A DNA stretch of 64,000 bases from Omnitrophica WOR_2 bacterium GWF2_43_52 (GTDB lineage Bacteria; Omnitrophota; Gorgyraeia; Gygaellales; UBA12090), in NCBI GenBank assembly GCA_001805445.1, contig MHGF01000003.1, positions 120,429-184,428 of the forward strand. Direction: 5' to 3'. Positions 570 to 63,092 of the stretch are shown here, in pieces. Under the pieces are notes generated by a model that worked only from the letters and a program-made list of their open reading frames with translations, was not told the DNA's origin and made no database searches. Numbering within the stretch: position 1 is the first letter of the stretch; each line of letters begins with the position of its first letter. A program made the translations under genes and the position numbers.

Positions 570-583
570 CCTTGTCATACAGT

Positions 584-2032: not shown

Positions 2033-2044
2033 GCAGATCATATC

Positions 2045-3139: not shown

Positions 3140-3574
3140 ACGGCTCTTTTTACAAGGCTGAAGAATTGATTGCCTAACTTCTTATTACCGTGAATGTATC
3201 GATAGGGTGCTTACCTTGTCTCGTGGTGTTTCATTAGGAAAAACTGGACAAAATAATCATGAAAGAGTATAATGAGATTCCAATAGTATAAGAATTGCGG
3301 AAAAACGTGTATTGTTATCCAACTTATAATGCTTTATTAAAAAACGCTATTAAAGCATAAACCATAGTTGCGGCAATTTTTTTAGGCTAAAGACTAAGAA
3401 TACCAGAGGCAAGGCACTTATCGCTACAGAAAGTTTTTTGGACTTTCATCAATCGCACCTTGAAGAATTAAATGAGTATTTGAGGATTTTATAGCATTCA
3501 ATAATGCCGCGTATACAAAAAACATTGTCTTTTTAGAGTAGGGAATTATTGACTCTTAACACAGAGGAGCAACA

Positions 3575-5709: not shown

Positions 5710-5723
5710 ATTTATGTGTTATA

Positions 5724-12765: not shown

Positions 12766-13757
12766 TGTCAGAACTAAGACGAGATCCTATCATTGAACGC
12801 TGGGTAATCGTGGATACGGACAACCCCACCAAACCGGAAGACTTTGAAAAAGAAGAAATAGTCTATCGTACAGGAGATTGCCCTTTTTGCTACGGCAACG
12901 AAGCAACCACCCCTCATGAGGTAGAGGTCATCCGCGACCCCGCCACGCACCCTAACAAGCCCGGATGGCAGGTAAGGGTAGTACCCAACAAGTTCCCTGC
13001 CCTGCAAATCGAAGGCGAAATAGAACGCCGAGGTGTCGGCTTATATGATATGTCAAACGGCATCGGCGCTCATGAGATTATCATCCAAACCCCCTACCAT
13101 CATAAGGAAATTCCTGACCTGGAAGACTACGAGGTGGAAAACGTCATCGCTATGTATTGCCGGAGGATGAACGATTTACATAAAGATACCCGTTTTAAAT
13201 ATATCCTTCTCTTTAAAAATTACGGCCCTTCCGCGGGGGCATCGCTTGAGCATCCGCATACCCAGCTTATCGCCCTGCCGATGATACCCAAAAACGTCCA
13301 GGAAGAATTAGACGGCGCTTATAAGTATTTTGAGTACCGCGAACGCTGTATTTTTTGTGATATCATCCGCCAGGAGCTGCAGGAAAAGGAGAGAATCATC
13401 TTTGAAAGTAAATACTTTATCGCCTTTTGCCCTTTTATCTCAAAATTCCCCTTTGAGGTCTGGATTATCCCCAAAAAGCATCAAGAGGCTTACTGCATGA
13501 TGAACCAGGAACAGATCCAGGAATTGGCGAAAATGCTTAAAAATACTTTACAAAGAATAAAAGATGTGCTATATAATCCAGCTTACAACTTTATCGTGCA
13601 TACCTCGCCGATAAATGTGGAGCATCGGGAAGGCTATCACTGGCACATAGAGATAATGCCTAAACTGACCCGGGTCGCCGGCTTTGAATGGGGGACAGGT
13701 TTTTACGTTGTGCCGACGCCTCCGGAAGTAGCGGCGAAGTACCTGAAGCAATCGTAA
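12765..13757 (+). CDS. GalT-like HIT-family nucleotidyltransferase (galactose-1-phosphate uridylyltransferase / ADP-glucose phosphorylase type) paralog 2, active-site intact
   Basis: CPFC, GAHEII, and an intact EHPHTQLIA motif. TAATG overlap with paralog 1. Confidence 0.8.
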   Translation: MSELRRDPIIERWVIVDTDNPTKPEDFEKEEIVYRTGDCPFCYGNEATTPHEVEVIRDPATHPNKPGWQVRVVPNKFPALQIEGEIERRGVGLYDMSNGIGAHEIIIQTPYHHKEIPDLEDYEVENVIAMYCRRMNDLHKDTRFKYILLFKNYGPSAGASLEHPHTQLIALPMIPKNVQEELDGAYKYFEYRERCIFCDIIRQELQEKERIIFESKYFIAFCPFISKFPFEVWIIPKKHQEAYCMMNQEQIQELAKMLKNTLQRIKDVLYNPAYNFIVHTSPINVEHREGYHWHIEIMPKLTRVAGFEWGTGFYVVPTPPEVAAKYLKQS

Positions 13758-22295: not shown

Positions 22296-25200
22296 ATGCC
22301 GCACTCCGATTTTGTCCACCTGCATCTCCACAGCCAATACAGCCTCCTTGACGGCGCCTGCTTACTTAAGAAACTCCTACAATTAGCCAGCCACCATAAA
22401 ATGCCTGCTTTGGCACTTACCGACCACGGCAATATGTTCGGGGCTATTGAGTTCTACCTTGAGGCCCAGCGCTCAGGAGTAAAACCAATCATTGGATGCG
22501 AAACCTATATCGCTCCCAAAAGCCGCTTTGATAAGTCATCGACGGGAATAAAAGAATCTAACCATCATTTCATCCTTCTGTGTAAAGACGAAGAAGGCTA
22601 TCATAACCTCATGAAGCTCGTTTCCATAGGGTATCTGGAAGGATTTTATTACCGTCCCCGTATAGATAAGGAAATCCTGGCAGAACACGCTAAAGGCCTC
22701 ATCGGTTTAACGGCCTGCCTCAAAGGCGAAATCCCTACGCTTTTAAGAAACAATCAGTATACCAGCGCCTTACGATGCGCCGATGATTTTCTGCAGATCT
22801 TTGGCAAAGGTAATTTCTATATAGAAGTGCAGCACAACGGCTTGGAAGAACAAACACTCTGCAATCAAAGCCTCATGAAACTTGCCAGAGAGTTATCATT
22901 GCCGCTGGTTGCTACTAATGATGTGCATTATTTGACCAGGCAAGCCGCTAAGGCGCACGAAGCCTTGTTATGTATACAAACCCAGGCCACGCTTTCTGAT
23001 CCTGGACACATGCGCTTTCATTCCGAGGAATTCTATTTCAAAAACGCGGATGAAATGAAAGCGCTCTTTAAAGAGCTCCCAGAAGCAATTACCAACACTA
23101 TAGCCATTACCGAAAAATGTAATCTTGAATTGAATTTTAAACAGCTGCACTTACCCCTGTACGAAGCTCCTGTGGGAAAGACAAAGGACGAATTCTTACG
23201 CGGCTTATGCGAAAAAGGGCTTACAAAACGTTTCCCTGAAGAAACCAACGATATACGGGAGCGCCTTGAATATGAGCTAGAAACCATCAAAAAAATAGGG
23301 TTTACCAGTTATTTTCTCATTGTCTGGGATTTTATCCACTACGCCAAGAGTAAAGGCATTCCTGTCGGGCCGGGAAGAGGTTCCGCGGCAGGAAGCCTGG
23401 TAAGCTATCTTTTAGAAATCACCGATATTAACCCCCTCAAATATGGCCTGCTTTTCGAGCGTTTCTTAAACCCTGAGCGAATAGGAATGCCTGATATCGA
23501 CATAGACTTTTGTTATGAACGAAGGCAGGAGGTCATTGATTATGTTACTAAAAAATACGGCCAAAAGAACGTTGCCCAGATTATTACCTTTGGAACAATG
23601 CTGGCACGGGCGGTTATCCGCGACGTAGGAAGAGTTATGGGAATGAGTTATGCCGATGTTGATAAAATTGCCAAGCTAATACCGGTAGAATTAAACATTA
23701 CCTTAGATGACGCGCTGCATCAAGAGCCTGAATTAGAACATTTATATAAAAGCGACGCCTCCGTAACACAGCTTATAGACACCGCGAAATCCCTTGAGGG
23801 GCTCACCCGCCATGCCTCAACCCATGCCGCGGGAGTCGTCATTTCTGATAAACCCTTAGACTATTATGTACCGCTGTTTAAAGCAGGGGATGAACAAACT
23901 ATCACCACGGGATATGCGATGGAATCGCTTGAAAAGATAGGCCTTCTTAAAATGGATTTTCTTGGCCTACGCACCTTAACCGTAATCCAAAGGGCCCTGG
24001 AAATCATCAAAGAAAGAAGGCAGTACTCGCTCAATATCGAGACAATCGCCCTTAGCGATAAAAAAACCTTTGACCTTTTAAGCTCAGCGCAAACCTTAGG
24101 GGTGTTTCAGCTTGAATCTAACGGCATGCGTGATCTGCTCAAAAAAGTAAACCCGTCCCAGTTTGAAGATTTAATCGCTATCCTGGCACTCTACCGGCCA
24201 GGGCCAATGGGCTCAGGGATGCTTGATGATTTTATTCAGCGCCGGAACGGGAAAACCGCTATCCGCTATGAATCAAAAAAGCTTGAGCCAATACTCGCTC
24301 CAACCTACGGGATTATGGTCTACCAAGAGCAGGTAATGCAAATTGCCTCGGTATTAGCAGGCTTCTCGCTTGCCCAGGCAGACATCCTGCGCAAGGCTAT
24401 GGCAAAAAAGATTCCCGAAGTCCTTGAAACACAGCGGCAGCATTTTGTAGAAGGAGCAAAGAAAAATGGGCTGCGTGAGCAATCCGCGAACAAGATTTTT
24501 GACCAGATAGAGTATTTCTCAGGTTATGGGTTCAACAAATCGCATTCGGCGGCCTACGCGCTTATTTCCTACCGCACCGCCTACCTTAAGGCTAATTATC
24601 CTGTTGAATTCATGGCAGCCCTGCTTACCTCAGAAAAAGACAACACCGATAAAATCGTGGAATATGTGGGGGAATGCCAGCGCATAGGAATTGAAATTTT
24701 ACCATCTGATGTTAATGAATCCCGGGATATTTTTACCGTGATTGATGATAAGAACATTCGTTTTGGGCTTATCGCGGTAAAAAACGTCGGCCAGGGAGCA
24801 ATTGAGTCGATCCTTAAGATCAGAGATGAAAAAGGGAAATTTAAATCATTATCTGATTTTTGCGAAAATCTCGACCTGCGCCTTGTCAACCGTAAAGTCA
24901 TGGAATCACTGATTAAAGCCGGGGCAATGGATTCCTTCGGCTTATTCAGGGCACAGCTGATGATGGATTTAGAGCACACCCTTGAAACATCATCCAAGTC
25001 TCAGAAAGAAAAAGCAACGGGGCAATTATCATTTTTTGACGCAGGCCAAACAAACGGTTTTAAGAAACAACTGACGCAGACCCCTCAAGTAAGAGAGTGG
25101 TCTGAGCCCCAGCTCTTGGCTTTTGAAAAAGAGATGCTCGGCTTTTATGTCACCGGGCATCCCCTGTCACGTTTTGCCAATCAGCTTAAGCGCTTTTCCT

Positions 25201-25733
25201 GCTGTTCTATAGCTCATCTGGGAACCACTAAAGATAACGACCTCATTAAAATCGCGGGGCTTATCATAAAAATCAAATATACCGTTACCCGTAAATCAGG
25301 TGAGAAAATGGCTATTTTGAAGCTTGAGGACCTTGGCGGCGCCGTTGAAATCCTGGTTTTTCCTGAGTCTTATAAACAAAACAGCCGTTTTATACAGCCA
25401 AACAGCATAGTCTTAATTACCGGCCGTTTAAATCTGAAAGAGGAAGCCCCGAAAATCATAGCGAGTACCATTATTCCTCTCGAAGAAGCGTATAAACAAA
25501 TCCTGAAAATAGACATAAACATTGCCGGTTTAAGGGAAAATCTTTTACTGAGCCTAAAAACCATGCTCACCCAATACTCAGGGAAGACCCCGGTCTACCT
25601 CCATATGGATACTGCCAATCGCGCGCGCTACCATATTCTTGTTTCCGAGGAACTGCACGTCCAGCCCAATCAAGGATTGATCCAGGAAATGGAATCACTT
25701 TTAGGTGAAGAAAGATTTTCCTTGACCCTCTAA
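22296..25733 (+). CDS. dnaE: DNA polymerase III alpha subunit
   Basis: PHP domain (HLHLHSQYSLLDGA), polymerase core, and OB domain. 1145 aa. Confidence 0.95.
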   Translation: MPHSDFVHLHLHSQYSLLDGACLLKKLLQLASHHKMPALALTDHGNMFGAIEFYLEAQRSGVKPIIGCETYIAPKSRFDKSSTGIKESNHHFILLCKDEEGYHNLMKLVSIGYLEGFYYRPRIDKEILAEHAKGLIGLTACLKGEIPTLLRNNQYTSALRCADDFLQIFGKGNFYIEVQHNGLEEQTLCNQSLMKLARELSLPLVATNDVHYLTRQAAKAHEALLCIQTQATLSDPGHMRFHSEEFYFKNADEMKALFKELPEAITNTIAITEKCNLELNFKQLHLPLYEAPVGKTKDEFLRGLCEKGLTKRFPEETNDIRERLEYELETIKKIGFTSYFLIVWDFIHYAKSKGIPVGPGRGSAAGSLVSYLLEITDINPLKYGLLFERFLNPERIGMPDIDIDFCYERRQEVIDYVTKKYGQKNVAQIITFGTMLARAVIRDVGRVMGMSYADVDKIAKLIPVELNITLDDALHQEPELEHLYKSDASVTQLIDTAKSLEGLTRHASTHAAGVVISDKPLDYYVPLFKAGDEQTITTGYAMESLEKIGLLKMDFLGLRTLTVIQRALEIIKERRQYSLNIETIALSDKKTFDLLSSAQTLGVFQLESNGMRDLLKKVNPSQFEDLIAILALYRPGPMGSGMLDDFIQRRNGKTAIRYESKKLEPILAPTYGIMVYQEQVMQIASVLAGFSLAQADILRKAMAKKIPEVLETQRQHFVEGAKKNGLREQSANKIFDQIEYFSGYGFNKSHSAAYALISYRTAYLKANYPVEFMAALLTSEKDNTDKIVEYVGECQRIGIEILPSDVNESRDIFTVIDDKNIRFGLIAVKNVGQGAIESILKIRDEKGKFKSLSDFCENLDLRLVNRKVMESLIKAGAMDSFGLFRAQLMMDLEHTLETSSKSQKEKATGQLSFFDAGQTNGFKKQLTQTPQVREWSEPQLLAFEKEMLGFYVTGHPLSRFANQLKRFSCCSIAHLGTTKDNDLIKIAGLIIKIKYTVTRKSGEKMAILKLEDLGGAVEILVFPESYKQNSRFIQPNSIVLITGRLNLKEEAPKIIASTIIPLEEAYKQILKIDINIAGLRENLLLSLKTMLTQYSGKTPVYLHMDTANRARYHILVSEELHVQPNQGLIQEMESLLGEERFSLTL

Positions 25734-25889: not shown

Positions 25890-26162
25890 ATGACTAAAAA
25901 AGATATCGCTTTAAAGGTTACTGATGCGACAGGGATTAAGCAGATTATTGTCAAAAAAGTCCTGCAGGGAATTTTTGACTGTATTATTGAAAGCTTAATC
26001 CGAGATGAAAAGATTGAACTGCGTAATTTCGGCGTCTTTAAACTAAAAACCCGCCGCCCCCGTATCGGAAGAAATCCCCGAACAGGCCAAACAGTACCTG
26101 TACCCGCGCGTAAAGTAGTTATTTTCAAACCCGGCCTAGAGATGAAACAACGCATTAAATAA
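25890..26162 (+). CDS. hup: HU/IHF-family nucleoid-associated DNA-binding protein
   Basis: MTKKDIA...FGVFKLKTRRPRIGRNPRTGQTVPVPARKVVIFKPG (beta-arm). Start moved to Met-18 of the track ORF, which sits behind a GGAGGG RBS. Confidence 0.85.
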   Translation: MTKKDIALKVTDATGIKQIIVKKVLQGIFDCIIESLIRDEKIELRNFGVFKLKTRRPRIGRNPRTGQTVPVPARKVVIFKPGLEMKQRIK

Positions 26163-26217
26163 ATTTCCTCTCACACGCTTCATTTTGGCAGCATGTGCCA
26201 ACACTCCAGCGCATACA

Positions 26218-27486
26218 ATGAAGGAAAATATCGAAACGTTTAAAGCACCTACGGGAACAAAGGATATCTTACCTGCTGAGGCGGCAGTCTGGCTGTCTGT
26301 TGAGGAAAAATGCAGGGATATCTTTGACCTCTATGGATATAAACCCATACGAACCCCAATTTTAGAGCATAGCGGCCTTTTTAACCGCTCCTTGGGTGAA
26401 GAAACCGAAATAGTCAAAAAACAGATGTTTCTCATCCCTCGCCAAACAGAAATCTTCTGCTTGCGTCCTGAGGCTACAGCAGCGGTAGTCAGGGCATATT
26501 TAGAGAATAACCTGGATAAAACCGATGGTTTTATGAAACTCTACTACATGGGGCCCATGTTTCGCGCGGAACGCCCACAAAAGGGGCGGCTTCGCCAGTT
26601 TCATCATATCGGTATTGAGGCCATAGGCTCATCAAACCCATACGTAGATTCAGAAATTATCGCTCTTGCTCGCGGAATTCTGGAAGAACTGAAAATTAGC
26701 GGCTATCAGATAAAAATAAACAGCTTGGGCTGCCCCGAGGATAAGCAAACGCTCAATAGGCTCTTACGCGAAAAACTCAAAGATAAGCTAGAAAAGCTTT
26801 GTGAAGACTGTAATGACCGCTTTAACCGAAATGTCTTTAGGATTTTAGACTGTAAGAACGATGGCTGTAAACAAGTTGTCAGCGAACTTGATTTACAGTA
26901 TAATGAGTATTTATGCCAACCGTGCTTACAACACTTTACCATAGTAAAAAATAACCTTGACGCGCTCAAGGTTGACTATCATTCCAGCACTAGCTTAGTA
27001 AGAGGCCTTGATTATTATACCAAGACAGTTTTTGAAATCTCTCATCCTGGGCTGGGGGCCCAAGACGCTTTAGGAGCAGGAGGCAGATACGATACGCTGA
27101 TTACTAACTTAGGAGGCCCTCATCTGGGGGCAATGGGTTTCGCGTTCGGCCTGGAGCGGCTTCTCTTAGCCGCGCCTCAAGAATCAGGCGTTTTTGCCGA
27201 AAACCTGAGTGTCTTTGTTATTACCTTAGGCGAACAAGCCCAAAAGAAAGGGTTTCTCCTGCTTCAGGAATTACGCCAAGCGCGTATTTCCTGCGATATG
27301 GATTATGAAGATAAATCCTTAAAGGCCCAGATGCGAAAGGCTCATGATTCAAAGGCGCGTTTTGCCGCCATACTCGGAGAAAATGAGCTGGCAAAACAGG
27401 TAATTGCCTTAAAAGATATGCGCGCAGGCAGTCAACACGAAATAGCGTTTACCACTATTGTTAACGAAATCAAAGAAAGGTTATAA
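26218..27486 (+). CDS. hisS: Histidyl-tRNA synthetase
   Basis: Class II motifs plus a HisRS anticodon-binding domain. The track TTG start was replaced by the ATG (MKENIETFKAPTGTKD). Confidence 0.9.
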   Translation: MKENIETFKAPTGTKDILPAEAAVWLSVEEKCRDIFDLYGYKPIRTPILEHSGLFNRSLGEETEIVKKQMFLIPRQTEIFCLRPEATAAVVRAYLENNLDKTDGFMKLYYMGPMFRAERPQKGRLRQFHHIGIEAIGSSNPYVDSEIIALARGILEELKISGYQIKINSLGCPEDKQTLNRLLREKLKDKLEKLCEDCNDRFNRNVFRILDCKNDGCKQVVSELDLQYNEYLCQPCLQHFTIVKNNLDALKVDYHSSTSLVRGLDYYTKTVFEISHPGLGAQDALGAGGRYDTLITNLGGPHLGAMGFAFGLERLLLAAPQESGVFAENLSVFVITLGEQAQKKGFLLLQELRQARISCDMDYEDKSLKAQMRKAHDSKARFAAILGENELAKQVIALKDMRAGSQHEIAFTTIVNEIKERL

Positions 27487-37467: not shown

Positions 37468-37489
37468 TAGGTTGGAGTTGGATTTTACT

Positions 37490-39700
37490 ATGCCTATGCG
37501 CCAGCAAAACCCACAGGAACGGATCAGAAACTTTTTTGAAGTAGCTCTTGGCTATTCCAAGGAAGACGCCCAAAAAGAAGCAGAGCGCTGCCTGCTCTGC
37601 AAAGAGCCCCTCTGCGTCCAAGGCTGCCCCGTTGAAATTGATATTCCGGCATTTATAAAGCTTTTACGTGAAGATAAGCCTCAAGAAGCACTCTCAAAAA
37701 TCAAGGAAAAAAATAACCTCCCCGCGGTCTGCGGCAGAGTCTGCCCACAGGAGGACCAATGCGAGGGAAGGTGCATTTTAAATAAGAAAAAAGTACCCAT
37801 CAATATCGGCGCCCTGGAACGCTACGCGGCGGATTATGGAAAAGTCCACAGTCAAAAAGGGCTATCGGCTAGTGACCATAGACTATCGATAAAAATCGCT
37901 GTCGTCGGCTCAGGGCCTGCGGGCTTGACAGCAGCCGCGGATCTTGCTAAAATGCGATATTCTGTTACGCTCTTTGAATCACTTCATGTTCCCGGCGGAG
38001 TCCTTAGCTATGGAATCCCGGAATTCCGCCTGCCCAAAGAAATTGTCCATGAGGAAATCGCCGCTATTAAGAATTTAGGCGTAGAATTAAAAACCGATAT
38101 TTTAATCGGAAAAACCTTTAGCCTTGTTGATCTTTTTGAGGCAGGATACAAAGCAATTTTTTTAGGGCTTGGGGCGGGGCTTCCTCAATTCATGGGAATC
38201 CCCGGTGAAAACTTAGACAGGGTTTATTCCGCCAATGAATTCCTCACCAGGGTAAACTTGATGCGGGCGTATAAGTTTCCCGAATTTAAAACACCTGTAT
38301 CCATAGGCAAAAAAATAGCGGTCATTGGTGGAGGGAACGTTGCCTTTGACAGTGCGCGCTGTGGCGCGCGTTTAGGAAGCCAGGTCAGCATTATCTATCG
38401 CCGCGGCGAAGCCGAAATGCCCGCGAGGCATGAGGAAATACAAAATGCGAAAGAAGAAGGAATAACCTTTCAATTGCTTACCCAGCCCGTAAAAATCATC
38501 GGGCTTGATACAGGCTTTGTAAGCGGTGTGGAATGCGTCAAAATGCAGCTTGGAGATCCTGACAGCTCAGGAAGGAGAAGGCCTGTCGCTATAGCAGGGT
38601 CCAATTTTGTTTTAGACGCGGATACGGTGATTATCGCGATCGGACAAACTCCCAATCCGCTTTTAGCAAAAGTTACTCCGGAATTAAAAACAACGCCGCG
38701 GGGAACCGTTATCATAGATAAAAACTATATGACATCAATACACGGGGTATTCGCCGGCGGGGATATTACTACCGGCGCCGACACCGTCATCGCCGCAATG
38801 GGCGCGGGGAAAAGGGCTGCCCGCGCGATAGACCACTATATAAAGAAAGTAGAGAGTAGAATGGCTGAGATAAAAAAAACGACGATACAGGATATACTTT
38901 CATTAAAGAACAAACGTAAAATCACCATGCTTACTGCCTATGATTATCCTCTTGCCTTATTGGTGGACAGGGCAGGCATAGATATGATACTCGTGGGAGA
39001 TTCCCTTGCCAATGTAGTCCTGGGATTAGACTCAACCACCAAAGTGGGAATGAACGAAATGCTGCATCATGCCAAGGCGGTAAGCCGCGCGGTAACACAC
39101 AGTTTAGTTATTGGCGATATGCCGTATGAATCATATCAGCTCAACCCCGGCAAAACAGTAGAAAATGCCAAGCGCTTTATTGAAGAAGCGCGCTGTGACT
39201 GCGTAAAATTGGAATGGTTTGATCAATGCCTTGAGGTAACAGAGAAAACCATTTCTTCAGGCGTTTCAGTCATGGGGCACATTGGCTTAACTCCGCAAAC
39301 AGCGGATAAACTCGGAGGTTTTAAAGTCCAGGGAAAAGACGCCCAAGCAGCCCAAAAACTTATTGACCAAGCGCGGGCATTAGAAAACGCGGGATGCTTT
39401 GCCATTGTCTTAGAATGTGTCCCTGACAAAATAGCCGAAATCATTACCCAAAAACTCACCATCCCTACGATAGGTATCGGAGCAGGCATGAGCTGTGACG
39501 GCCAGGTCCTTGTTACCCATGATATGCTCGGCCTCTTTGAAAGATTCACCCCTAAATTCGTTAAAAAATACCTTGATCTTGGCCCCTTGATACTCAAAGC
39601 CATTGAAGAATATAAGAACGACGTCCTGCAGAAAAGGTTTCCGGGCCAGGAACATAGTTTCAGCATAAAAAACGAAGAACTTATAAAACTAAAAACATGA
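37490..39700 (+). CDS. In-frame fusion: GltD/NfnB/SudA-like NAD(P)H-dependent FAD/FeS oxidoreductase (residues 1 to about 460) plus 3-methyl-2-oxobutanoate hydroxymethyltransferase PanB (about 465 to the end)
   Basis: N-terminus: 2x Cys clusters (CKEPLCVQGCP / CGRVCPQEDQCEGRC) and two GxGxxG motifs (VVGSGPAGL / IGGGNVAFD). C-terminus: PanB motifs KITMLTAYDYP, LVGDSLANVVLG and HIGLTPQ. There is no stop between them (linker ...KKVESRMAEIKK...). Confidence 0.7.
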   Translation: MPMRQQNPQERIRNFFEVALGYSKEDAQKEAERCLLCKEPLCVQGCPVEIDIPAFIKLLREDKPQEALSKIKEKNNLPAVCGRVCPQEDQCEGRCILNKKKVPINIGALERYAADYGKVHSQKGLSASDHRLSIKIAVVGSGPAGLTAAADLAKMRYSVTLFESLHVPGGVLSYGIPEFRLPKEIVHEEIAAIKNLGVELKTDILIGKTFSLVDLFEAGYKAIFLGLGAGLPQFMGIPGENLDRVYSANEFLTRVNLMRAYKFPEFKTPVSIGKKIAVIGGGNVAFDSARCGARLGSQVSIIYRRGEAEMPARHEEIQNAKEEGITFQLLTQPVKIIGLDTGFVSGVECVKMQLGDPDSSGRRRPVAIAGSNFVLDADTVIIAIGQTPNPLLAKVTPELKTTPRGTVIIDKNYMTSIHGVFAGGDITTGADTVIAAMGAGKRAARAIDHYIKKVESRMAEIKKTTIQDILSLKNKRKITMLTAYDYPLALLVDRAGIDMILVGDSLANVVLGLDSTTKVGMNEMLHHAKAVSRAVTHSLVIGDMPYESYQLNPGKTVENAKRFIEEARCDCVKLEWFDQCLEVTEKTISSGVSVMGHIGLTPQTADKLGGFKVQGKDAQAAQKLIDQARALENAGCFAIVLECVPDKIAEIITQKLTIPTIGIGAGMSCDGQVLVTHDMLGLFERFTPKFVKKYLDLGPLILKAIEEYKNDVLQKRFPGQEHSFSIKNEELIKLKT

Positions 39701-39743
39701 TAGCAACACCTTCTCGATTCCGCGCAATTCCTAAAAAGGAGGA

Positions 39744-41138
39744 ATGATGTTTACCTCAAGCGTAAGTGACAGGCGCAAGGATTATCGGATATACAACCCG
39801 GTGCCGGTAGCCTGTGAAATCGTTAACACTCAAGGCACTCCGATAAGAAAGCTAACTGTCATGGCAAAAGACATTAGTTCCAGCGGCATCTATTTTGAGT
39901 TTGGGGTAGCGTTAGCCTTGAATACGGAAATGAAAGTGGAATTCTCCCTGCCCAGAACAAACCATAACATAATTGCGACAGTAAAAATTAAACGGATAGA
40001 ATCAACCGAATTAGAAAATACTTTCGGCATTGGAGCCGCGTTTACCGAAATTCAGGATAACGACAGACATGAGATTGTCAAATTTATCGAATTCCTTAAT
40101 ATCGAAAAACTCCTTGAAATCACCGTACGAAAAGGGGCTTCAGACCTGCATCTCTTGGCCGAACAGCAGCCGGCGTTGCGCATCCATGGAGAAATTGAAC
40201 CTATAGACTTGCCTAAACTCTCTTCTGACGAAATAAGCAAAATACTTTTTAGCACCCTTTCCAGGCAGCAGATAAAACAATTTGAGCATGAGAAAGAATT
40301 AGACTACGGCTTGCAGTTTGACTCGGAAAATCGTTTCAGGGTAAATCTTCACCAGCAGCGCGGCTTCACCGAAGCAACCCTCAGGCTTATCAACACCAGG
40401 ATTCCGTCATTTGAAGAACTCCAGCTGCCGGATGCGGTGAAAGACTTGGCAAGGCTTAAGGACGGCCTCATTCTTGTTGCCGGCCCCACAGGTTCAGGAA
40501 AAACTACTACGATAGCGGCAATGGTTGATTTAATCAATAAAGAGAAAAAAGGCGTAGTCATAACCTTGGAAAGGCCGATTGAGTTCGTACATCTCAATAT
40601 AAAAAGCATCATCAAGCAACGCGAGGTAGGCATAGATACTAACTCATTTTCTACCGCCCTTAAAAGCAGCCTCAGGCAAGACCCTAACGTTATCGTCATC
40701 GGAGAAATCGAGGATATTGAAACGGTAAAAACCGCGATCATTGCCGCGGAAACCGGCCACCTTGTCATCGCCTCTTTTCACGCTACTGACTCAATGCAGG
40801 CCATTGACCGCCTAGCAGGGTTTTTCCCAACAGAAAACAGAAAACAAATACTCTCTCAATTATCACATTGCCTCCATGGGATATTAACCCAGGTACTCCT
40901 GCCCCGCAAGGATAAATTAGGCAGGGTTTTAGCCTGCGAAATTGTTTTCGCTAATGACGCGGTAAAAAGGATTATCCGCAGAGATGAACTAATCCAACTG
41001 GCTACCGCTATCCAAACAGGCGCGAACTTTAAAATGAAATCCTTAAACGATGCCGTGAAAAAATACTTAGATGAAGGCGTCATTGACGAAGAAGCTGCGC
41101 GAGCATATTTGGATGAGGCAAATAAATCTTACCGGTAA
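39744..41138 (+). CDS. pilT: PilZ-domain::PilT fusion (c-di-GMP-binding domain fused to a type IV pilus retraction ATPase)
   Basis: N-terminal RRKDYR (RxxxR) and DISSSG (DxSxxG) PilZ motifs. PilT core follows with Walker A GPTGSGKTTT and the PilT signature (AxxEhxGhNVIxGEIEDIETV). Confidence 0.8.
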   Translation: MMFTSSVSDRRKDYRIYNPVPVACEIVNTQGTPIRKLTVMAKDISSSGIYFEFGVALALNTEMKVEFSLPRTNHNIIATVKIKRIESTELENTFGIGAAFTEIQDNDRHEIVKFIEFLNIEKLLEITVRKGASDLHLLAEQQPALRIHGEIEPIDLPKLSSDEISKILFSTLSRQQIKQFEHEKELDYGLQFDSENRFRVNLHQQRGFTEATLRLINTRIPSFEELQLPDAVKDLARLKDGLILVAGPTGSGKTTTIAAMVDLINKEKKGVVITLERPIEFVHLNIKSIIKQREVGIDTNSFSTALKSSLRQDPNVIVIGEIEDIETVKTAIIAAETGHLVIASFHATDSMQAIDRLAGFFPTENRKQILSQLSHCLHGILTQVLLPRKDKLGRVLACEIVFANDAVKRIIRRDELIQLATAIQTGANFKMKSLNDAVKKYLDEGVIDEEAARAYLDEANKSYR

Positions 41139-41186: not shown

Positions 41187-42758
41187 ATGAAAGTAGCGGC
41201 CAATCAAGAAGTAATGGAAAAAATAGTATCTCTTTGTAAACGAAGAGGCTTCATATTTCAAGGCTCTGAAATTTACGGAGGGCTTGCCAACACCTGGGAT
41301 TACGGGCCCTTAGGCGCGGAATTAAAACGTAATATAAAAGAGGCCTGGTGGCGCGCGAATGTGCGCGAGCGCTCGGACATGGTAGGGCTCGACGCGGCAA
41401 TCCTCATGCATCCAAAAGTCTGGGAGGCATCGGGGCATTTAAAAAGTTTTGCCGATCCCTTTGTGAAATGCCCTGCCTGCGGAAATTTCTTTAGGTCTGA
41501 CAGGATTTGGGATGAAATCTTAAATAGCCCTTGGTGCAGTTCTCTAAAAGAAGGAATGAAAGGTGAAAAAGGCGCTTCTTGTTATCTCCATTGGGCAAAA
41601 AACGAGGGTAAGAAATTAGCTCAGAATTTAAGCCTGGTAAAAGAGCCAGAGATAACCCTTTCCTTTCTTGGCGATAGAGTTGAAAAGTTTGGAGAGACAG
41701 GGATTGATTTTAAAACTTTTTTAGCCAGAATCTCTTGTACGCCTGATGGAATAGCCAAAACACCGTGTCCAAATTGCGGAAATCCCTTACCGGAAGAATC
41801 TATGGCCGCGAATCTTATGCTTGAGACTTACTTTGGCCCTGTAAAGGAAACCGCGCAAAAGGTCTATCTCCGCCCTGAGACCGCACAGGGGATATTTGTG
41901 AATTTCGCCAATATCGTGGATGTTTCACGAAAAAAACTCCCCTTTGGCATTGCCCAAATCGGAAAATCGTTTCGCAATGAAATAACCCCCGGGAATATCA
42001 CCTTTAGGACCCGGGAATTTGAACAAATGGAAATAGAGTATTTTGTAAGGCCTGAGGAAGCGGAAAAAGCCTATGAATATTGGGTGCAGGAACGCTACAA
42101 TTGGTATCTTGGCTTGGGAATGCAAAAAGAGAACATACGCCTGAGGCCTCATGATAAAAAGGAATTAGCTCATTACGCCAAAGCCTGTTCTGATATAGAA
42201 TATCAGTTCCCTTTTGGCTGGTCGGAATTAGAAGGGATTGCCAATAGAAGTGACTTTGATTTAGCGCAGCATTCCAAACACTCGGGTAAAGAACTTGCCT
42301 ATTTTGATTCGCTGACCAAAGAAAAAATAGTGCCTTACATTATCGAGCCTTCAGGAGGTGTTGACAGGGCAGCCCTGGCCTTTTTGGTTGACGCCTACAG
42401 CGAAGAAAAAGTTAAGGACGAAACCAGGGTAGTTTTAAAACTTGACAAGAAACTCGCGCCCTTTGCCATTGCTGTTTTGCCTCTTTTAAAGAACAGGCCG
42501 GAAATCGTTGCCCTGGCAAAAAAGCTTTATCAGGATGTACGCTGCCGTTGGGCGAGTGTCTATGACGATACCGCGGCAATCGGAAAACTTTATCGTCGGC
42601 AGGATGAAGTAGGAACGCTTTTTTGCTTGACAGTTGATGTACAATCATTAGAAGATAAACAAGTAACGGTACGTGACAGAGACACCATGAAGCAGGACCG
42701 GATTAGCATGGATAGGCTAAAGGAATATTTCGCGGATAGGTTAAACAATAGGGGGTAG
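41187..42758 (+). CDS. glyS: Glycyl-tRNA synthetase, dimeric alpha2 type
   Basis: Class II GlyRS (GSEIYGGLANTWDYGPLG) with a Cys-containing insertion. Confidence 0.9.
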   Translation: MKVAANQEVMEKIVSLCKRRGFIFQGSEIYGGLANTWDYGPLGAELKRNIKEAWWRANVRERSDMVGLDAAILMHPKVWEASGHLKSFADPFVKCPACGNFFRSDRIWDEILNSPWCSSLKEGMKGEKGASCYLHWAKNEGKKLAQNLSLVKEPEITLSFLGDRVEKFGETGIDFKTFLARISCTPDGIAKTPCPNCGNPLPEESMAANLMLETYFGPVKETAQKVYLRPETAQGIFVNFANIVDVSRKKLPFGIAQIGKSFRNEITPGNITFRTREFEQMEIEYFVRPEEAEKAYEYWVQERYNWYLGLGMQKENIRLRPHDKKELAHYAKACSDIEYQFPFGWSELEGIANRSDFDLAQHSKHSGKELAYFDSLTKEKIVPYIIEPSGGVDRAALAFLVDAYSEEKVKDETRVVLKLDKKLAPFAIAVLPLLKNRPEIVALAKKLYQDVRCRWASVYDDTAAIGKLYRRQDEVGTLFCLTVDVQSLEDKQVTVRDRDTMKQDRISMDRLKEYFADRLNNRG

Positions 42759-59044: not shown

Positions 59045-59263
59045 TTGGCAGGAAACGGTAGGATGACAATTACAGACGTAGCTGAGCGGTTAGGCGTTAC
59101 CCAAAAGACAATTGTCCGCTGGGAAAAAGCAGGTAAGGTAGGCCTGGCAAAGCGTGACTGGCGCGGCTGGCGAGTCTATGATAAAAATGATTTCAAAAAA
59201 CTAAAAACTTTTAAGGAAATGATCGTGTATTACGGGGAGGACAAAAATGATACAAAAACTTAA
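59045..59263 (+). CDS. MerR/excisionase-family HTH DNA-binding protein
   Basis: HTH MTITDVAERLGVTQKTIVRWEKAGKV. TTG start chosen 6 nt after an AAGGAGG RBS (the alternative is the ATG at 59063). 3' end overlaps the wza start. Confidence 0.6.
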   Translation: MAGNGRMTITDVAERLGVTQKTIVRWEKAGKVGLAKRDWRGWRVYDKNDFKKLKTFKEMIVYYGEDKNDTKT

Positions 59264-60083
59264 GTATATAGGTATACTGCTGGTTTTCGCGGCTACTTCG
59301 GCCCAGGCGTTTGCCGCAGCTGAGCCTTCTGAGGAGCTCAAGATTATTGAAACGCCGAATACAATAGAAATCCACACTTCGCAAATAGCAGCTCCTCTCG
59401 ATAAGAGCCAGGACACTACCGCTTCAGAAGCTACCACCAAAACCATCGTGTCAGAGAGCTATAAATTTGACCCCCTCAAGTATACCCTCGGCCCTGATGA
59501 TGTCATTGAGATCGCGGTCCTGCGCCATCCGGAGTTTAGCGGCGTCTACCCCATAGACCAGGAGGGAAAGATTCAATATAAATTTGTCGGAGATATAGTG
59601 GTAACCGGCTTAACAAAGTCACAATTAGAACAAAGAATAACGGATATTATTTCCAGCTTTGTTATCACTCCTGAGGTAAACGTCACTATTAACGAATACC
59701 GGAGTAAAGTTATTTACATCCTGGGGGAAGTCGGAACCCCGGGGAAATACTACATACGTTCTGAGGCGATTCCCGTGCGCGAGGCGGTATTCCAGGCAGG
59801 GCTTCCTACTGGATCAGCGGCTATGCGCAAATGCCAGATTATTACACCCTCAAAAGACGGAAATGTCAAGATACGAAAGGTTGACATCTATTCATTGCTC
59901 TACGGCGGTAATTTAAAGAAAAACATCGAAATGAAACCCGGAGATGTGCTCTATGTCCCATCTACCGTAATGGCAAAACTCATTAGAGTCATTAACCCCG
60001 TTGCCTCTACCGTGGGCGTCGCTTCAAGCGGCCCAAGCAGCGCATCAGGCGGCAAGGCCGCGCTTGAAACTTTAGCCAAATAA
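59247..60083 (+). CDS. Polysaccharide export outer-membrane protein (Wza/EpsE/GumB family, Poly_export plus SLBB)
   Basis: Signal peptide; motif YTLGPDDVIEIAVLRHPEFSGVYPIDQEGKIQYKFVGDIVVTGLT. Confidence 0.8.
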   Translation: MIQKLKYIGILLVFAATSAQAFAAAEPSEELKIIETPNTIEIHTSQIAAPLDKSQDTTASEATTKTIVSESYKFDPLKYTLGPDDVIEIAVLRHPEFSGVYPIDQEGKIQYKFVGDIVVTGLTKSQLEQRITDIISSFVITPEVNVTINEYRSKVIYILGEVGTPGKYYIRSEAIPVREAVFQAGLPTGSAAMRKCQIITPSKDGNVKIRKVDIYSLLYGGNLKKNIEMKPGDVLYVPSTVMAKLIRVINPVASTVGVASSGPSSASGGKAALETLAK

Positions 60084-60100
60084 TACGAGGAGACTAAATA

Positions 60101-61414
60101 ATGGAAGACCAGGAATTCAGCAAATACCGTAACCCCATAGAATACCTTAAAGTATTTTTTCGCCGCAAATGGCTTTTTATCGCGCCCGCCTTTATCGGCA
60201 CAACCATAGGAGCGGCAGCGTGTTTCCTGCTTCCGCCCACATGGGAATCTTCAACGATAATCCTTGTTGAGGAAGAAAAAATAATTAATCCGCTCTTTCA
60301 AAACCTGGCGGTATCAACCAGCGCCGCGCAGAGAATGCAAAGTATCAGAGAAAGCATCCTCAGCTGGAACAGCTTGGTTGAGCTGGCTAAAAAGTTAGAC
60401 TTGGCAAAAAACGCGCAGTCGCAAGCAGAATATGAGCGGCTGATTATGAACCTCAAGAAAGACATCTCCGTCCAGATGCGCCAGCACAATATTATCAGGC
60501 TTGCCTACGAAGGGAAAACTCCCAAGGAAACCCAGTTAGTGGCAAAGACGCTTACCGATATCCTGGTCGAAAAAAACATGCGGGCGCAAACCAAGGAAAC
60601 TGATGTGGCAATAGCCTTTATCACAGAACAGCTTGCCATCTACAAAAGAAAGATAAAAGAATCGGAAATCGCTAACCTGCAGGACCAATTAAAAAACCTC
60701 CTGGAAGATTCTACCGAACAGCATCCTATAGTCAAAGAAATAAGGCAGAAAATAGATACGGAACTAAAAGAGTTAGACTCCGGGGAATATAAAATTACCG
60801 GAACAGAGCAAGCCATTTCCAGCCCCGCGAGAGAAGCCTTAAAAAAGGAGCTGGATAAACTCGTCCAAGACAAGACATCCCAGTCACTCTCAGGCGGCGT
60901 GCGGCCGACAGCCGCGGAAAGCGAGAACGACGCTAATAAATCCATCTATAAGCTCCTCTTAATGGACAGGGTAGATACATCATTAGCGAGGGATATCAAC
61001 GTTAACGTCAGTATCTACAATATGCTTCTTGAGAAATTAGAGACCGCGAAAATCACCCAGCGCCTGGAAACCTCTAAAGAAGGAACGCGCTATACTATCC
61101 TTGACCCGCCCCGTCTTCCTTTAAAACCGATAAAGCCTAAAAAGGTATTGGTCGTCCTGCTGGGGTTTTTCTTCGGTGCCGCCTCCGGTACAGGGCTTGT
61201 CTTTGGCAAGGAATTTATGGACCAATCGTTCCTGGACATCGAAGATACACGGCATACACTGTCATTACCAGTATTAGGCGCGATTTCGCGCATCACGACG
61301 CAAGAAGCAATTGATAAAGAGAAAAACAGGAGGAAAGTCGCTATTGCCGCAAGCATAGTTTTAGCTTCGGCCTCAGTAATCGGCGCTGCCCTGTTTTCAC
61401 TCTTAAAAAAATAA
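60101..61414 (+). CDS. Polysaccharide chain-length determinant / co-polymerase (Wzz/PCP family, GumC/EpsF-like)
   Basis: N-terminal TM plus the Wzz motif, a long periplasmic coiled-coil, and a C-terminal TM helix. Confidence 0.75.
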   Translation: MEDQEFSKYRNPIEYLKVFFRRKWLFIAPAFIGTTIGAAACFLLPPTWESSTIILVEEEKIINPLFQNLAVSTSAAQRMQSIRESILSWNSLVELAKKLDLAKNAQSQAEYERLIMNLKKDISVQMRQHNIIRLAYEGKTPKETQLVAKTLTDILVEKNMRAQTKETDVAIAFITEQLAIYKRKIKESEIANLQDQLKNLLEDSTEQHPIVKEIRQKIDTELKELDSGEYKITGTEQAISSPAREALKKELDKLVQDKTSQSLSGGVRPTAAESENDANKSIYKLLLMDRVDTSLARDINVNVSIYNMLLEKLETAKITQRLETSKEGTRYTILDPPRLPLKPIKPKKVLVVLLGFFFGAASGTGLVFGKEFMDQSFLDIEDTRHTLSLPVLGAISRITTQEAIDKEKNRRKVAIAASIVLASASVIGAALFSLLKK

Positions 61415-61418
61415 GACT

Positions 61419-62288
61419 ATGTACGAAAATTTCTTCGGATTTAGCGAAAAACCGTTCAACACCACCCCTGACTCAAGATTCTTTTTCCCAAGCACCAAGC
61501 ATTTGGAGGCGCTTAACAGCTTAGTCTATGCCATTGACCAGAGGAAAGGCTTTGTCGTCATTACCGGTGAAATCGGGGCAGGCAAGACCACCGTCTGCAG
61601 AACACTCTTAAATAAGCTTAACGGCAGCACCAAAGTAGCCCTCATCACCAATACCCACATCAGCGCGAAAGAACTCCTTTCGGAGATTCTTGACGAATTC
61701 GAGATTGAACATAAGGGAGGAACCAAACAAAGGCTCCTCTCGCATCTGAACAAATTCCTGATTCAGGAGTTAGCCACAGACACCAATGTCGTTTTGATTA
61801 TTGATGAAGCGCAAAACCTTACCCCTACGGTTTTAGAGGAGGTACGGATGCTTTCTAACCTTGAGACCGAAAAAGAAAAGCTCATCCAGATTATCCTTCT
61901 CGGACAGCCCCAGCTCAAAGCAAAGCTGGAACATTCAAGATTGGAACAATTCAAACAAAGGATTGCCGTTTACTATCACTTAGCTACCCTCAACCATGAA
62001 GAAACGAAAGAATACATCCATCACAGGCTAAAAATCGCCAGCGTCAACGCGCATGTCAAAATTTTTAGCCCTGAGGCAATAGACTTAATTTACGCCTATT
62101 CAAAAGGCGTGCCCCGAATTATCAATTTAACCTGCGACAGCGCGCTTTTAAGCGGCTATATTATGGATACGAAGTGCATTGAAGAAACAACAATCAAGGA
62201 AGTAATCAAAGAGAGGCAATTAGAAAGCTCCGTTACCGATCTTGCGTGTACTGAAAATCAAGACGCCTCTTATTGTGTTAAGCATTAA
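61419..62288 (+). CDS. ExeA/GspA-like AAA ATPase of EPS loci (PEP-CTERM-locus 'secretion ATPase' type)
   Basis: FGFSEKPFNTTPDSRFFFPSTKHLEAL...VVITGEIGAGKTTVCR (Walker A), then DEAQNL. Confidence 0.75.
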   Translation: MYENFFGFSEKPFNTTPDSRFFFPSTKHLEALNSLVYAIDQRKGFVVITGEIGAGKTTVCRTLLNKLNGSTKVALITNTHISAKELLSEILDEFEIEHKGGTKQRLLSHLNKFLIQELATDTNVVLIIDEAQNLTPTVLEEVRMLSNLETEKEKLIQIILLGQPQLKAKLEHSRLEQFKQRIAVYYHLATLNHEETKEYIHHRLKIASVNAHVKIFSPEAIDLIYAYSKGVPRIINLTCDSALLSGYIMDTKCIEETTIKEVIKERQLESSVTDLACTENQDASYCVKH

Positions 62289-62303
62289 TCAAAAAGGAGC
62301 ACT

Positions 62304-63092
62304 ATGGGTAAATTAACCGATGCCTTAAAAAAAGCAGCTGAAGAACGCATTTCAAGAATAGAAAAGCTTGATAGCCAAGACGAAGTCAAATACCAGTTCA
62401 TTGCCAAAAAAACGGTAGAGTCAAAGATTGACCCCCGCATTGTCTCATTCTACGACTCCCACGCTCCGGTATCCGAACAATACCGCAGCCTACGCACCAA
62501 TCTTCAAGCCTTAAATACCTCAAAACCGGCGAAAGTCATCGCGATCACCAGTTCTATTAACGGCGAAGGGAAAACCATCTCCGCGATCAACCTGGCTATC
62601 ACAATGGCAAAGGACCTTAATCAAAAAAGTATCCTCCTTATTGACGCTGACCTGCGCCGTTCGCGTATCACCAAATACCTTGGCATAACCCCTGAATTAG
62701 GGCTTTCAGATATCATCACCAATGGCTCAAACATTGACGACGCGCTCCTGAATATAGGCATCGAGAATCTCACGGTGCTTTCCGCGGGAAAGCACCCCAC
62801 TAATCCCGCGGAACTTTTAGGCTCACAGAAATTCAAGAACCTCATGAACCAGGTAAAGGCCAAATACGACTACATCATCCTTGACACCCCGCCGATTATC
62901 CCGGTAACCGATGCCGGATTAATAGGCGCGCAAGCTGACGGCGTGATAATGGTTGTCCAGGCATCCCGCACGCAACGGGGAGTTGTCAAACACAGTGAAG
63001 GGCTCCTAAAACAAGCCCAAGCCAAAATTCTCGGCTACATACTCACGAATGTCCAGTACCATATACCAGGGTATATTTATAGATACTTATAA
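62304..63092 (+). CDS. Bacterial tyrosine (BY) kinase / chain-length-determinant ATPase (CpsD/EpsG type)
   Basis: Walker A' ITSSINGEGKTISAINLA, Walker A...DADLRRS, Walker B YDYIILDTPP. C-terminal Tyr-rich tail YHIPGYIYRYL. Confidence 0.8.
   Translation: MGKLTDALKKAAEERISRIEKLDSQDEVKYQFIAKKTVESKIDPRIVSFYDSHAPVSEQYRSLRTNLQALNTSKPAKVIAITSSINGEGKTISAINLAITMAKDLNQKSILLIDADLRRSRITKYLGITPELGLSDIITNGSNIDDALLNIGIENLTVLSAGKHPTNPAELLGSQKFKNLMNQVKAKYDYIILDTPPIIPVTDAGLIGAQADGVIMVVQASRTQRGVVKHSEGLLKQAQAKILGYILTNVQYHIPGYIYRYL

Follow-up and report, generated by a model that had tools for sequence, protein, structure and literature searches.

In reviews from 2024 and 2025, cyclic di-GMP (c-di-GMP) is described as acting on the extension ATPase of type IV pili (T4P) by way of MshEN, PilZ or FimX, and PilT is not among the receptors they name; across the literature searched, control runs via this ATPase or via accessory proteins. 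The regulation of pilus retraction is much less understood than that of extension. In the MshE/PilB-type ATPases that carry an MshEN domain (Vibrio cholerae MshE, Pseudomonas aeruginosa HxrA and Thermus thermophilus PilF), the c-di-GMP receptor is present in cis, N-terminal to the N2D domain. In Xanthomonas (PilZ-FimX-PilB) and P. aeruginosa (PilZ-PilB), a PilZ-fold module is attached to the T4P motor and coupled to c-di-GMP signalling. The PilZ protein of these systems is separate and degenerate; it does not bind the messenger and serves as an adaptor on the extension ATPase, and it is FimX that reads c-di-GMP, with its EAL domain. Neither canonical PilT nor PilU is extended at the N-terminus, and no direct c-di-GMP site is known in either. 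Here we describe a gene, PilZ::PilT, from Omnitrophica WOR_2 bacterium GWF2_43_52 (phylum Omnitrophota), the product of which joins an N-terminal PilZ domain to a PilT-type ATPase. It lies in a 64,000-nucleotide stretch of contig MHGF01000003.1 (positions 120,429 to 184,428), referred to as the window.

An earlier note on this DNA had proposed the fusion and had stated, as background, that c-di-GMP acts on the extension ATPase. This background agrees with the two reviews, and the fusion turned out to be a natural, conserved architecture, with the same layout in >100 homologues and a conserved gene order. We favour the reading that the protein is a PilT-family hexameric motor ATPase with a built-in c-di-GMP receptor, which would gate either its activity or its docking; judging from sequence conservation and structural models, we assign this a probability of roughly 0.6.

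The PilZ domain, the ATPase and the junction between them

By profile, motifs and predicted fold alike, the N-terminal domain is a canonical, motif-intact PilZ domain, unlike the degenerate PilZ after which the domain is named. The Pfam model PF07238 (gathering score 22.5 bits) matches the whole protein with 43.6 bits (E 4e-11, model positions 1–101 of 102) and the N-terminal 120 amino acids (aa) alone with 47.2 bits (E 3e-12), both well above the gathering cut-off. Two AlphaFold2 (AF2) models were built, one of the full-length protein from a 107-sequence family alignment (mean predicted local distance difference test score, pLDDT, 87.4; predicted TM-score, pTM, 0.78) and a separate one of residues 1–122 (pLDDT 80.5). 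Both predict a six-stranded beta-barrel (strands 16/20–27, 33–44, 48–53, 62–68, 75–87 and 94–103) followed by a C-terminal helix (105–117/118). When the model of residues 1–122 was compared with the PDB by Foldseek, the top 42 matches were all PilZ domains, nearly all of them solved c-di-GMP receptors. The best was MotI/DgrA (E 3.6e-7, TMq 0.78), and Alg44, YcgR, MrkH, MapZ, BcsA, PP4397, VCA0042 and PlzA were among the others. A chance occurrence of the two motifs is ruled out by the profile E-values together with the fold.

The earlier note had placed both PilZ motifs at the N-terminus, which profile, motif check, fold prediction and fold search all bear out; the strings it had listed are present in the translation (RRKDYR at residues 10–15, DISSSG at 43–48 and, in the ATPase, GPTGSGKTTT at 247–256). 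The first motif lies in a loop that the ligand-free models predict to be disordered (pLDDT <50 for residues 1–10), and the second conforms to the definition [D/N]hSxxG, with h a hydrophobic residue (bioRxiv 10.1101/814665). Within the clade to which the window protein belongs (clade A, n = 115), R11 is kept in 105 sequences and R15 in 109, D/N43 in all 115, the hydrophobic residue 44 (I/L/V) in 112 and G48 in 106; position 45 is Ser in 82 and Asn in 28. A second clade of fused proteins (group B, n = 26), only 39–48% identical to the query, has both Arg and the D/N in 26/26, the Ser in 25/26 and the Gly in 24/26. We infer from these motifs that the PilZ domain binds c-di-GMP. Directly before RxxxR stands an R or K in 106/115 clade A sequences. 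According to the work on PP4397 and VCA0042, from which the L135R structure is among the Foldseek matches of the N-domain, such a residue reportedly goes with binding of an intercalated c-di-GMP dimer, and for this reason the ligand is probably such a dimer here.

The remainder of the protein is, by its sequence, a PilT-family paralogue and very probably catalytic. The NCBIfam model TIGR01420 (PilT/PilU family, trusted cut-off 319.1 bits) matches residues 120–457 with 391.7 bits over model positions 2–339 of 343. A phmmer search of the PDB gave Geobacter metallireducens PilT4 with 285 bits, P. aeruginosa PilT with 268 bits and, also among the best matches, G. sulfurreducens PilT4, Aquifex PilT and Thermus PilT2; P. 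aeruginosa PilU scored 243 bits and PilB/GspE at most 87 bits. The ATPase part is likewise matched by Foldseek to PilT4 (6ojz/6ok2; TM-score normalised to target 0.87–0.88, 41% identity), and among the Foldseek PDB matches no solved chain covers PilZ and ATPase together.

The N-domain arginines R197, R199 and R214 (RFRVN..QRG) are invariant in clade A (each 115/115), as are D313, G320 and the catalytic E321 and, in the Asp box, E276 and E280; H346 of the His box is kept in 114/115. These match the residue classes that McCallum et al. list as universally conserved in PilT-like ATPases (PMC5424180). In that work, the universally conserved ligand of Mg2+ is one of the Asp-box Glu residues, the His-box histidine is highly conserved and the second His contacts the gamma-phosphate in PilB. 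The clade has its own substitutions at two sites: R277 (112/115) takes the place of the Asp found in group B and in the unfused PilTs of Omnitrophota, and position 339, which is His in the window protein, is Tyr in 85/115 members. The C-terminal motif AVKRIIRR has three of eight residues identical to AIRNLIRE (the A and the I-R pair) and three conservative changes (V, K and I), with A406 kept in 113/115 and R412 in 115/115. In the description of this part as a complete PilT, the Asp box calls for a correction, as it is atypical (ERPIE, where EDPIE is canonical). To call it the PilT of the cell goes too far: it is a member of the PilT/PilU family, but of a separate, diverged clade, and unfused pilT genes are found elsewhere in the Omnitrophota.

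Identity as PilB, GspE, ComGA, DotB, TraJ or VirB11 was also considered and rejected, as all these models score far below their curated cut-offs (the PilB model TIGR02538, 117.7 bits against 675.65; TIGR02533, 112.6 against 630.25). The window protein has no Pfam match to MshEN, and both an N1D and a tetracysteine zinc motif are absent, there being three cysteines in the whole protein and no CxxC pair.

The two domains adjoin almost without an intervening residue. In the AF2 model the PilZ helix (105–117) is separated by a 2-residue break from the first helix of the ATPase N-domain (120–129), and unfused PilTs begin precisely at the end of the PilZ helix. The spacing between F100, on the last PilZ strand, and S133, in the ATPase, is 34 residues in 110/115 clade A sequences and in 26/26 of group B. 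Since a linker is lacking and the geometry of the join has been kept over deep divergence, the junction favours mechanical or allosteric coupling over a sensor that is only loosely tethered. As judged from the alignments, ligand motifs and junction length are under strong purifying selection in both clades. An assembly or frameshift artefact is ruled out by the >100 independent homologues with an invariant junction.

Table 1. Sequence features of the PilZ::PilT gene, in positions of the window
Feature	Position	Strand	Basis or remark
PilZ::PilT coding sequence	39744..41138	+	464 aa from first ATG, TAA stop; 463 aa if the start is 39747
Shine-Dalgarno AAGGAGG	39736..39742	+	Ahead of two candidate ATGs, 39744 and 39747; read from sequence
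PilZ domain, canonical, residues 9–116	39768..40091	+	Pfam PF07238, AF2 models, Foldseek
First c-di-GMP-binding motif RRKDYR (R10; R11-x-x-x-R15)	39771..39788	+	Loop predicted disordered
Second motif for binding of c-di-GMP, DISSSG, residues 43–48	39870..39887	+	Clade alignment
Linker-free junction, PilZ helix to ATPase helix	40056..40130	+	AF2 secondary structure, alignment spacing
PilT N-terminal (N2D-like) domain, residues 120–222	40101..40409	+	TIGR01420/T2SSE, PilT4 6ojx alignment
PilT C-terminal RecA-like ATPase domain, residues 223–457	40410..41114	+	TIGR01420, PDB sequence and fold matches
Walker A GPTGSGKTTT (K253)	40482..40511	+	K253 115/115
Atypical Asp box TLERPIEF	40563..40586	+	E276 and E280 kept; canonical Asp replaced by R277
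Atypical Walker B with catalytic glutamate, DPNVIVIGEIED (E321)	40680..40715	+	Clade alignment
His box ETGHLVIASFH (H339, H346)	40749..40781	+	Clade alignment
AIRNLIRE-like C-terminal motif AVKRIIRR	40959..40982	+	Aligns with AIRNLIRE of Geobacter and Aquifex PilT

The gene probably starts at the second of the two ATGs, because the AAGGAGG sequence lies 4 nt from this codon (1 nt from the first), because homologues align from the second Met onwards (n = 115), and because database entry P0001, which is identical to the window protein, has 463 aa. An exact-sequence look-up of the window protein returned no record.

Distribution, gene neighbourhood and links to pili and c-di-GMP

The fused gene represents a distinct paralogue clade, which is ancient and nearly core in the Omnitrophota. 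A protein search gave >110 proteins of ~460 aa, 54–80% identical to the query, almost all of which carry precomputed PF07238 and PF00437 matches and which, where an organism is named, are mostly labelled as Candidatus Omnitrophota/Omnitrophica metagenome-assembled genomes (MAGs). When one genome was scanned for each GTDB species, 573 relatives came up; the best 80 of these were kept and yielded 34 loci of clade A, 26 of group B and 18 of an unfused PilT of ~350 aa from Omnitrophota. Fused loci thus number at least 60 among the best 80 species genomes, and the phylum has both the fused and the unfused form. The labels of group B include Zixibacteria, Ignavibacteria, Pseudomonadota and Verrucomicrobiota, although such MAG labels are unreliable. 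In a neighbour-joining tree of the ATPase domains, which is rough, clade A and most of group B fall together, on a branch separate from the PilTs of Geobacter and Aquifex and from the unfused PilTs of Omnitrophota.

A search with a member of the Zixibacteria/Ignavibacteria type returned metagenomic proteins only, with the few organism names all being MAG labels, and this occurrence solely in metagenomes is probably why the architecture went unremarked. When the PilZ part was searched with phmmer in a set of 1.84 billion representatives, 78 matches came up, of which ~13 are fused full-length proteins; clustering at 50% collapses the family in that set, which makes it of little use for counting members. 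No paper describing the PilZ-PilT architecture was found in the literature searched, which leaves most subscription journals outside, and the fusion is unmentioned in two PilZ survey preprints, the Omnitrophota paper, a review of PilB regulation, the 2025 review of effectors, a paper on PilZ in Myxococcus and a Leptospira survey.

Another composite PilT protein was noted as well. Tandem PilT-PilT proteins of ~712–773 aa, with two complete T2SSE units, are very common among metagenomic PilT relatives (entries P0088, P0099, P0104, P0107, P0113 and P0210–P0317, with P0104 at L003:10001-12226). Where named, they include Myxococcales, Lentisphaerae, Kiritimatiellaeota and Akkermansiaceae MAGs, and in the one context examined the surroundings are housekeeping genes.

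The window reads like chromosomal DNA of an Omnitrophota member, with all its genes on the + strand. It begins with polysaccharide biosynthesis genes, followed by priA, fmt, two galT-like genes, gap-pgk-tpi, secG, guaB, guaA and dnaE, and continues with a small HU gene, hisS, aspS, a LysM gene, phoH, a 7TM-HD gene, ybeY (named solely from syntenic relatives), recO, panE and PolX. PilZ::PilT is preceded by a gene for a sulfide/dihydroorotate-dehydrogenase-like subunit and an open reading frame (ORF) for a GltA-like::PanB protein, and is followed by glyS, ppdK, a sigma-70 gene, further housekeeping genes and an exopolysaccharide (EPS) export cluster; no terminator-like site was found on the + strand between panB, the fused gene and glyS. 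Nearly all ORFs of at least 120 aa were covered by regex searches and Pfam/NCBIfam scans (a few genes being named via syntenic relatives), and in this set the window holds no pilin (by regex), no PilB, PilC, PilM, PilN, PilO or PilQ, and no GGDEF, EAL or HD-GYP protein. The order panB-[PilZ-PilT]-glyS-ppdK-sigma recurs in ~25 of the 34 loci of clade A and was seen in all of the long contigs examined, and therefore points to vertical inheritance within a housekeeping block.

Ten group B genes occupy another conserved slot, guaA-dnaE-[PilZ-PilT]-HIT-HU-hisS. In the corresponding slot of the window there is only an HU/IHF-like ORF (25891-26162, +), between dnaE (22296-25733) and hisS (26185-27486); either a group B copy has been lost here, or the two fused clades represent a single gene in alternative locations.

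That the gene is solitary and flanked by housekeeping genes, as stated in the earlier note, is correct over the 64 kb, but it is uninformative. The pilT genes are usually unlinked from pilus operons, and the unfused pilT genes of the Omnitrophota also have housekeeping neighbours, apart from frequent pilT-pilT pairs. Pooled Pfam scans of the surroundings of unfused pilT and group B genes gave no recurrent pilus genes. The solitary placement of PilZ::PilT thus carries little weight.

Pili themselves are common in the phylum: type IVa pili are encoded in 135/141 Velamenicoccia genomes and in most genomes of the other Omnitrophota classes, and Tad systems are also present in the phylum (PMC10066038). 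The same study describes mostly ultra-small cells, for which a host-attached or predatory lifestyle is proposed. Two loci place a fused gene near pilus genes, as a survey of related loci for T4P genes revealed. In one (L047), a group B fused gene is found ~4 kb from a pilB(MshEN+T2SSE)-pilT-pilC operon (L047:1468-5610, -), and therefore fused and unfused PilT co-occur in one genome. In the other (L058), a fused gene that branches at the base of clade A and an MshEN-PilB gene (L058:11601-13418, -) are convergent, and the latter is followed by an ORF of 1513 aa.

As to turnover of the messenger, 13 HD-GYP genes were found in 1.18 Mb of related loci, and eight of these encode GAF-HD-GYP proteins 2.5–4 kb downstream of group B fused genes (L035, L037–L040, L043, L045 and L052). 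The GAF-HD-GYP protein, of ~500 aa and with a PF13487 match, is a putative c-di-GMP phosphodiesterase encoded just after hisS (for example at L037:14217-15746). It may be a functional partner of the fused gene, or its proximity may reflect synteny among close relatives. The lone cyclase-like match is a degenerate REC-GGDDF protein (L007:10365-11591, +), encoded directly after a fused gene (L007:8858-10240), with a C-terminal segment that resembles an MshEN-type repeat. The fused gene next to it belongs to clade A, and the PilZ motifs that it encodes are degenerate, too (KxxxR, NISSED).

Several other features of the window were noted. The ORF upstream of PilZ::PilT (37472-39700, +) encodes 742 aa in one frame, consisting of a GltA/GltD-like NADPH-dependent glutamate synthase part (residues 7–459) and PanB (467–730) with no stop between them. 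Relatives have two adjacent genes for proteins of 420 aa and 279 aa. The ORF could be a genuine fusion or the result of a lost or misread stop. The glycyl-tRNA synthetase encoded downstream (41187-42758, +) has 523 aa, against 432–456 aa in a number of syntenic relatives. Its additional segment is rich in Cys (CPACG...CPNCG) and resembles an inserted zinc-ribbon, and the long form is also found in L018, L024 and L025. An IS200-like Y1 transposase (PF01797; 53300-54049, +), missing from syntenic relatives, is located between the genes for an alginate-export-like outer-membrane protein and a GH57 protein. Polysaccharide clusters are present near both ends, one (572-8754, +) with MBOAT, epimerase, GT1, GT4/WbaP-like and O-antigen-ligase-like genes, the other (59247-63092, +) with Poly_export, Wzz/GNVR, AAA_22 (ExeA-like) and ParA/tyrosine-kinase-like ATPase genes. 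The two galT-like genes (11746-13757, +) are adjacent paralogues of the galactose-1-phosphate uridylyltransferase type (HIT superfamily).

Proposed function of the fused protein

PilT works by alternating open and closed interfaces between N-domain and C-domain around its hexamer, and a PilZ domain would be well placed to bias these states because it is fixed to the first helix of the N-domain. We envisage that binding of c-di-GMP orders the free N-terminal loop of PilZ, and that the liganded barrel then packs differently against an N-domain, either that of the same subunit or that of its neighbour. Such a change could bias the open and closed subunit interfaces needed for hydrolysis, or else the docking of the hexamer under the PilC/PilM platform. 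As PilZ occupies the same topological position as MshEN, N-terminal to N2D, extension-type and retraction-type motors would be able to read one messenger.

The direction of such control would, by a slight and weakly held preference, be inhibition of retraction at high c-di-GMP. This preference comes from the analogy with YcgR/MotI and from the rule that, in general, piliation and attachment go with high c-di-GMP. Under such a brake, the motor would be kept off at high c-di-GMP, leaving pili out and adhesive, and hydrolysis of c-di-GMP, for instance by the GAF-HD-GYP enzymes near some members of the family, would release retraction. Where a genome also encodes an unfused PilT, the fused protein probably works as a conditional or auxiliary motor for retraction, and it should not be assumed to be the principal retraction motor of the cell. 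A bolder proposal, which we consider possible but somewhat doubtful, is that PilZ::PilT represents the first case of a direct receptor for c-di-GMP on a retraction-type motor, and that in Omnitrophota and some neighbouring uncultured phyla both MshEN-PilB and PilZ-PilT read c-di-GMP. One messenger would in this way set the balance of extension and retraction in the pili with which these ultra-small, probably host-attached cells hold and pull their partners.

A number of observations weigh against a c-di-GMP-gated retraction-type motor. Ligand binding and retraction are both read from homology, and as to the direction of regulation we are guessing, with YcgR/MotI as the analogues. The window is devoid of pilus genes and c-di-GMP enzymes; pilB or pilC was found within 10 kb in just 2 of ~60 fused loci, L047 and L058; and there is no intact GGDEF cyclase in the 1.18 Mb of related loci, a small sample that repeats the same syntenic regions. 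This last result is a gap rather than evidence of absence. A few clade A members (L007 and L008) have degenerate PilZ motifs (KxxxR, NISSED/NISSDS), so that control by the ligand would be dispensable in some lineages. On the ATPase side, AIRNLIRE is only partly retained in the window protein, and clade A has an invariant Arg for the Asp-box Asp and usually Tyr for the first His of the His box; clade A may thus differ from canonical PilT in kinetics or role.

These changes in the active site (Asp-box D to R, His to Y), together with the separate branch on which clade A lies relative to canonical PilT and the unfused Omnitrophota PilTs, would fit a different task. The protein could be a c-di-GMP-controlled motor or switch that serves a Tad, T2SS-like (type II secretion) or competence system and not T4P retraction, or a purely regulatory ATPase, its PilT label then being a matter of family likeness only. 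The housekeeping gene block in nearly all genomes and the Tad systems of the Omnitrophota are compatible with this, and PilT paralogues that lack a clear retraction role are known from Geobacter and Myxococcus (PMC5065972 and PMC13584747). We nevertheless regard such a task as unlikely. The match to TIGR01420 spans the full model above the trusted cut-off, with TraJ, DotB, ComGA, PilB, GspE and VirB11 far below, and the top structural and sequence matches are all bona fide PilTs. Two related fused genes adjoin pilB, one of them also pilC, and the housekeeping context is shared by the unfused pilT genes of the phylum, as pilT is normally unlinked.

The broken motifs of L007 and L008, and the lack of a PF07238 match in several homologue database entries, raise a different question, namely whether PilZ still senses c-di-GMP at all or has become a protein-protein adaptor or localisation module, like the PilZ that acts on PilB in Pseudomonas and Xanthomonas. 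Non-binding PilZ domains that control pili by protein contacts are well documented (bioRxiv 10.1101/814665 and PMC8389850), and the lack of an intact diguanylate cyclase in the sampled loci would be in keeping with such a role. However, known non-binding PilZ proteins are without the motifs and the N-terminal loop (bioRxiv 10.1101/814665), and the window protein possesses both motifs and the full canonical fold of N-terminal loop, six strands and C-terminal helix. Motifs that are near-invariant over clades 39–48% identical are hard to explain without ligand binding, and HD-GYP phosphodiesterases do occur in the phylum. We therefore consider an adaptor role improbable.

That the fused protein is a sensor subunit of weak catalytic activity, which co-assembles with or acts through an unfused PilT/PilU and passes on c-di-GMP control, is very improbable, for every universally conserved catalytic residue is invariant and the second fused clade has fully canonical motifs, even though unfused pilT and tandem pilT-pilT pairs exist in the Omnitrophota, L047 has an unfused pilT alongside the fused gene, the Asp-box and His-box substitutions of clade A could lower activity, and PilU motors that depend on PilT are established (PMC6762196 and PMC6821130).

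Comparison with known c-di-GMP-controlled systems

The fusion joins two very common modules, and automated annotation already tags both Pfam domains. If the favoured reading of a motor with a built-in receptor is correct, c-di-GMP can be wired directly onto the retraction side of T4P, and PilZ-PilT would be a simple soluble protein for testing c-di-GMP control in vitro. Under the bolder proposal, its linker-free junction would provide a clean model for a PilZ barrel that allosterically controls a hexameric ATPase in the ASCE class (additional strand catalytic E). For the Omnitrophota, the proposed lifestyle of which relies on pili for attachment to host or prey (PMC10066038), this near-core gene may mark a central behavioural switch in a group that is not yet culturable.

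The MshE/PilB-type ATPases resemble PilZ::PilT in logic: these too are hexameric motors of the PilT-like family, and the messenger acts on them directly, as it would on PilZ::PilT. The sensors differ, a PilZ beta-barrel here as against the helical fold of MshEN, and so do the motors: that of PilZ::PilT is of the PilT/PilU type, with neither N1D nor tetracysteine motif, and is joined to its sensor rigidly and without a linker. With canonical PilT (3jvv, 6ojx and, from Aquifex aeolicus, 2ewv) and PilU (9n32) it has in common the two-domain fold (TM-score normalised to target up to 0.88–0.92), the Walker A motif, the catalytic Glu, the N-domain arginines and the second His, at ~40% identity, and it adds to these ~118 residues of PilZ.

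YcgR and MotI (DgrA) are reminiscent of PilZ::PilT in that c-di-GMP-binding PilZ proteins act directly on a motility motor, and MotI is the nearest structure to its N-domain. However, YcgR and MotI are proteins in their own right, which dock on the flagellar stator or rotor, and the RxxxR loop serves as a hinge between their two PilZ-type domains, whereas PilZ::PilT has a single PilZ domain held covalently in the motor, with the RxxxR loop at the free N-terminus. In contrast to the PilZ of the PilZ-FimX-PilB system, its PilZ domain is canonical and motif-intact and is fused to a retraction-type ATPase. A canonical PilZ domain within the effector polypeptide itself is also found in Alg44, where it is likewise N-terminal, and in BcsA, but there the outputs are membrane polysaccharide synthases or co-polymerases and not a soluble hexameric ATPase. 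The fusion is thus real, widespread and uncharacterised, and it extends the logic of a cis-acting c-di-GMP sensor on a pilus motor to a retraction-type ATPase.

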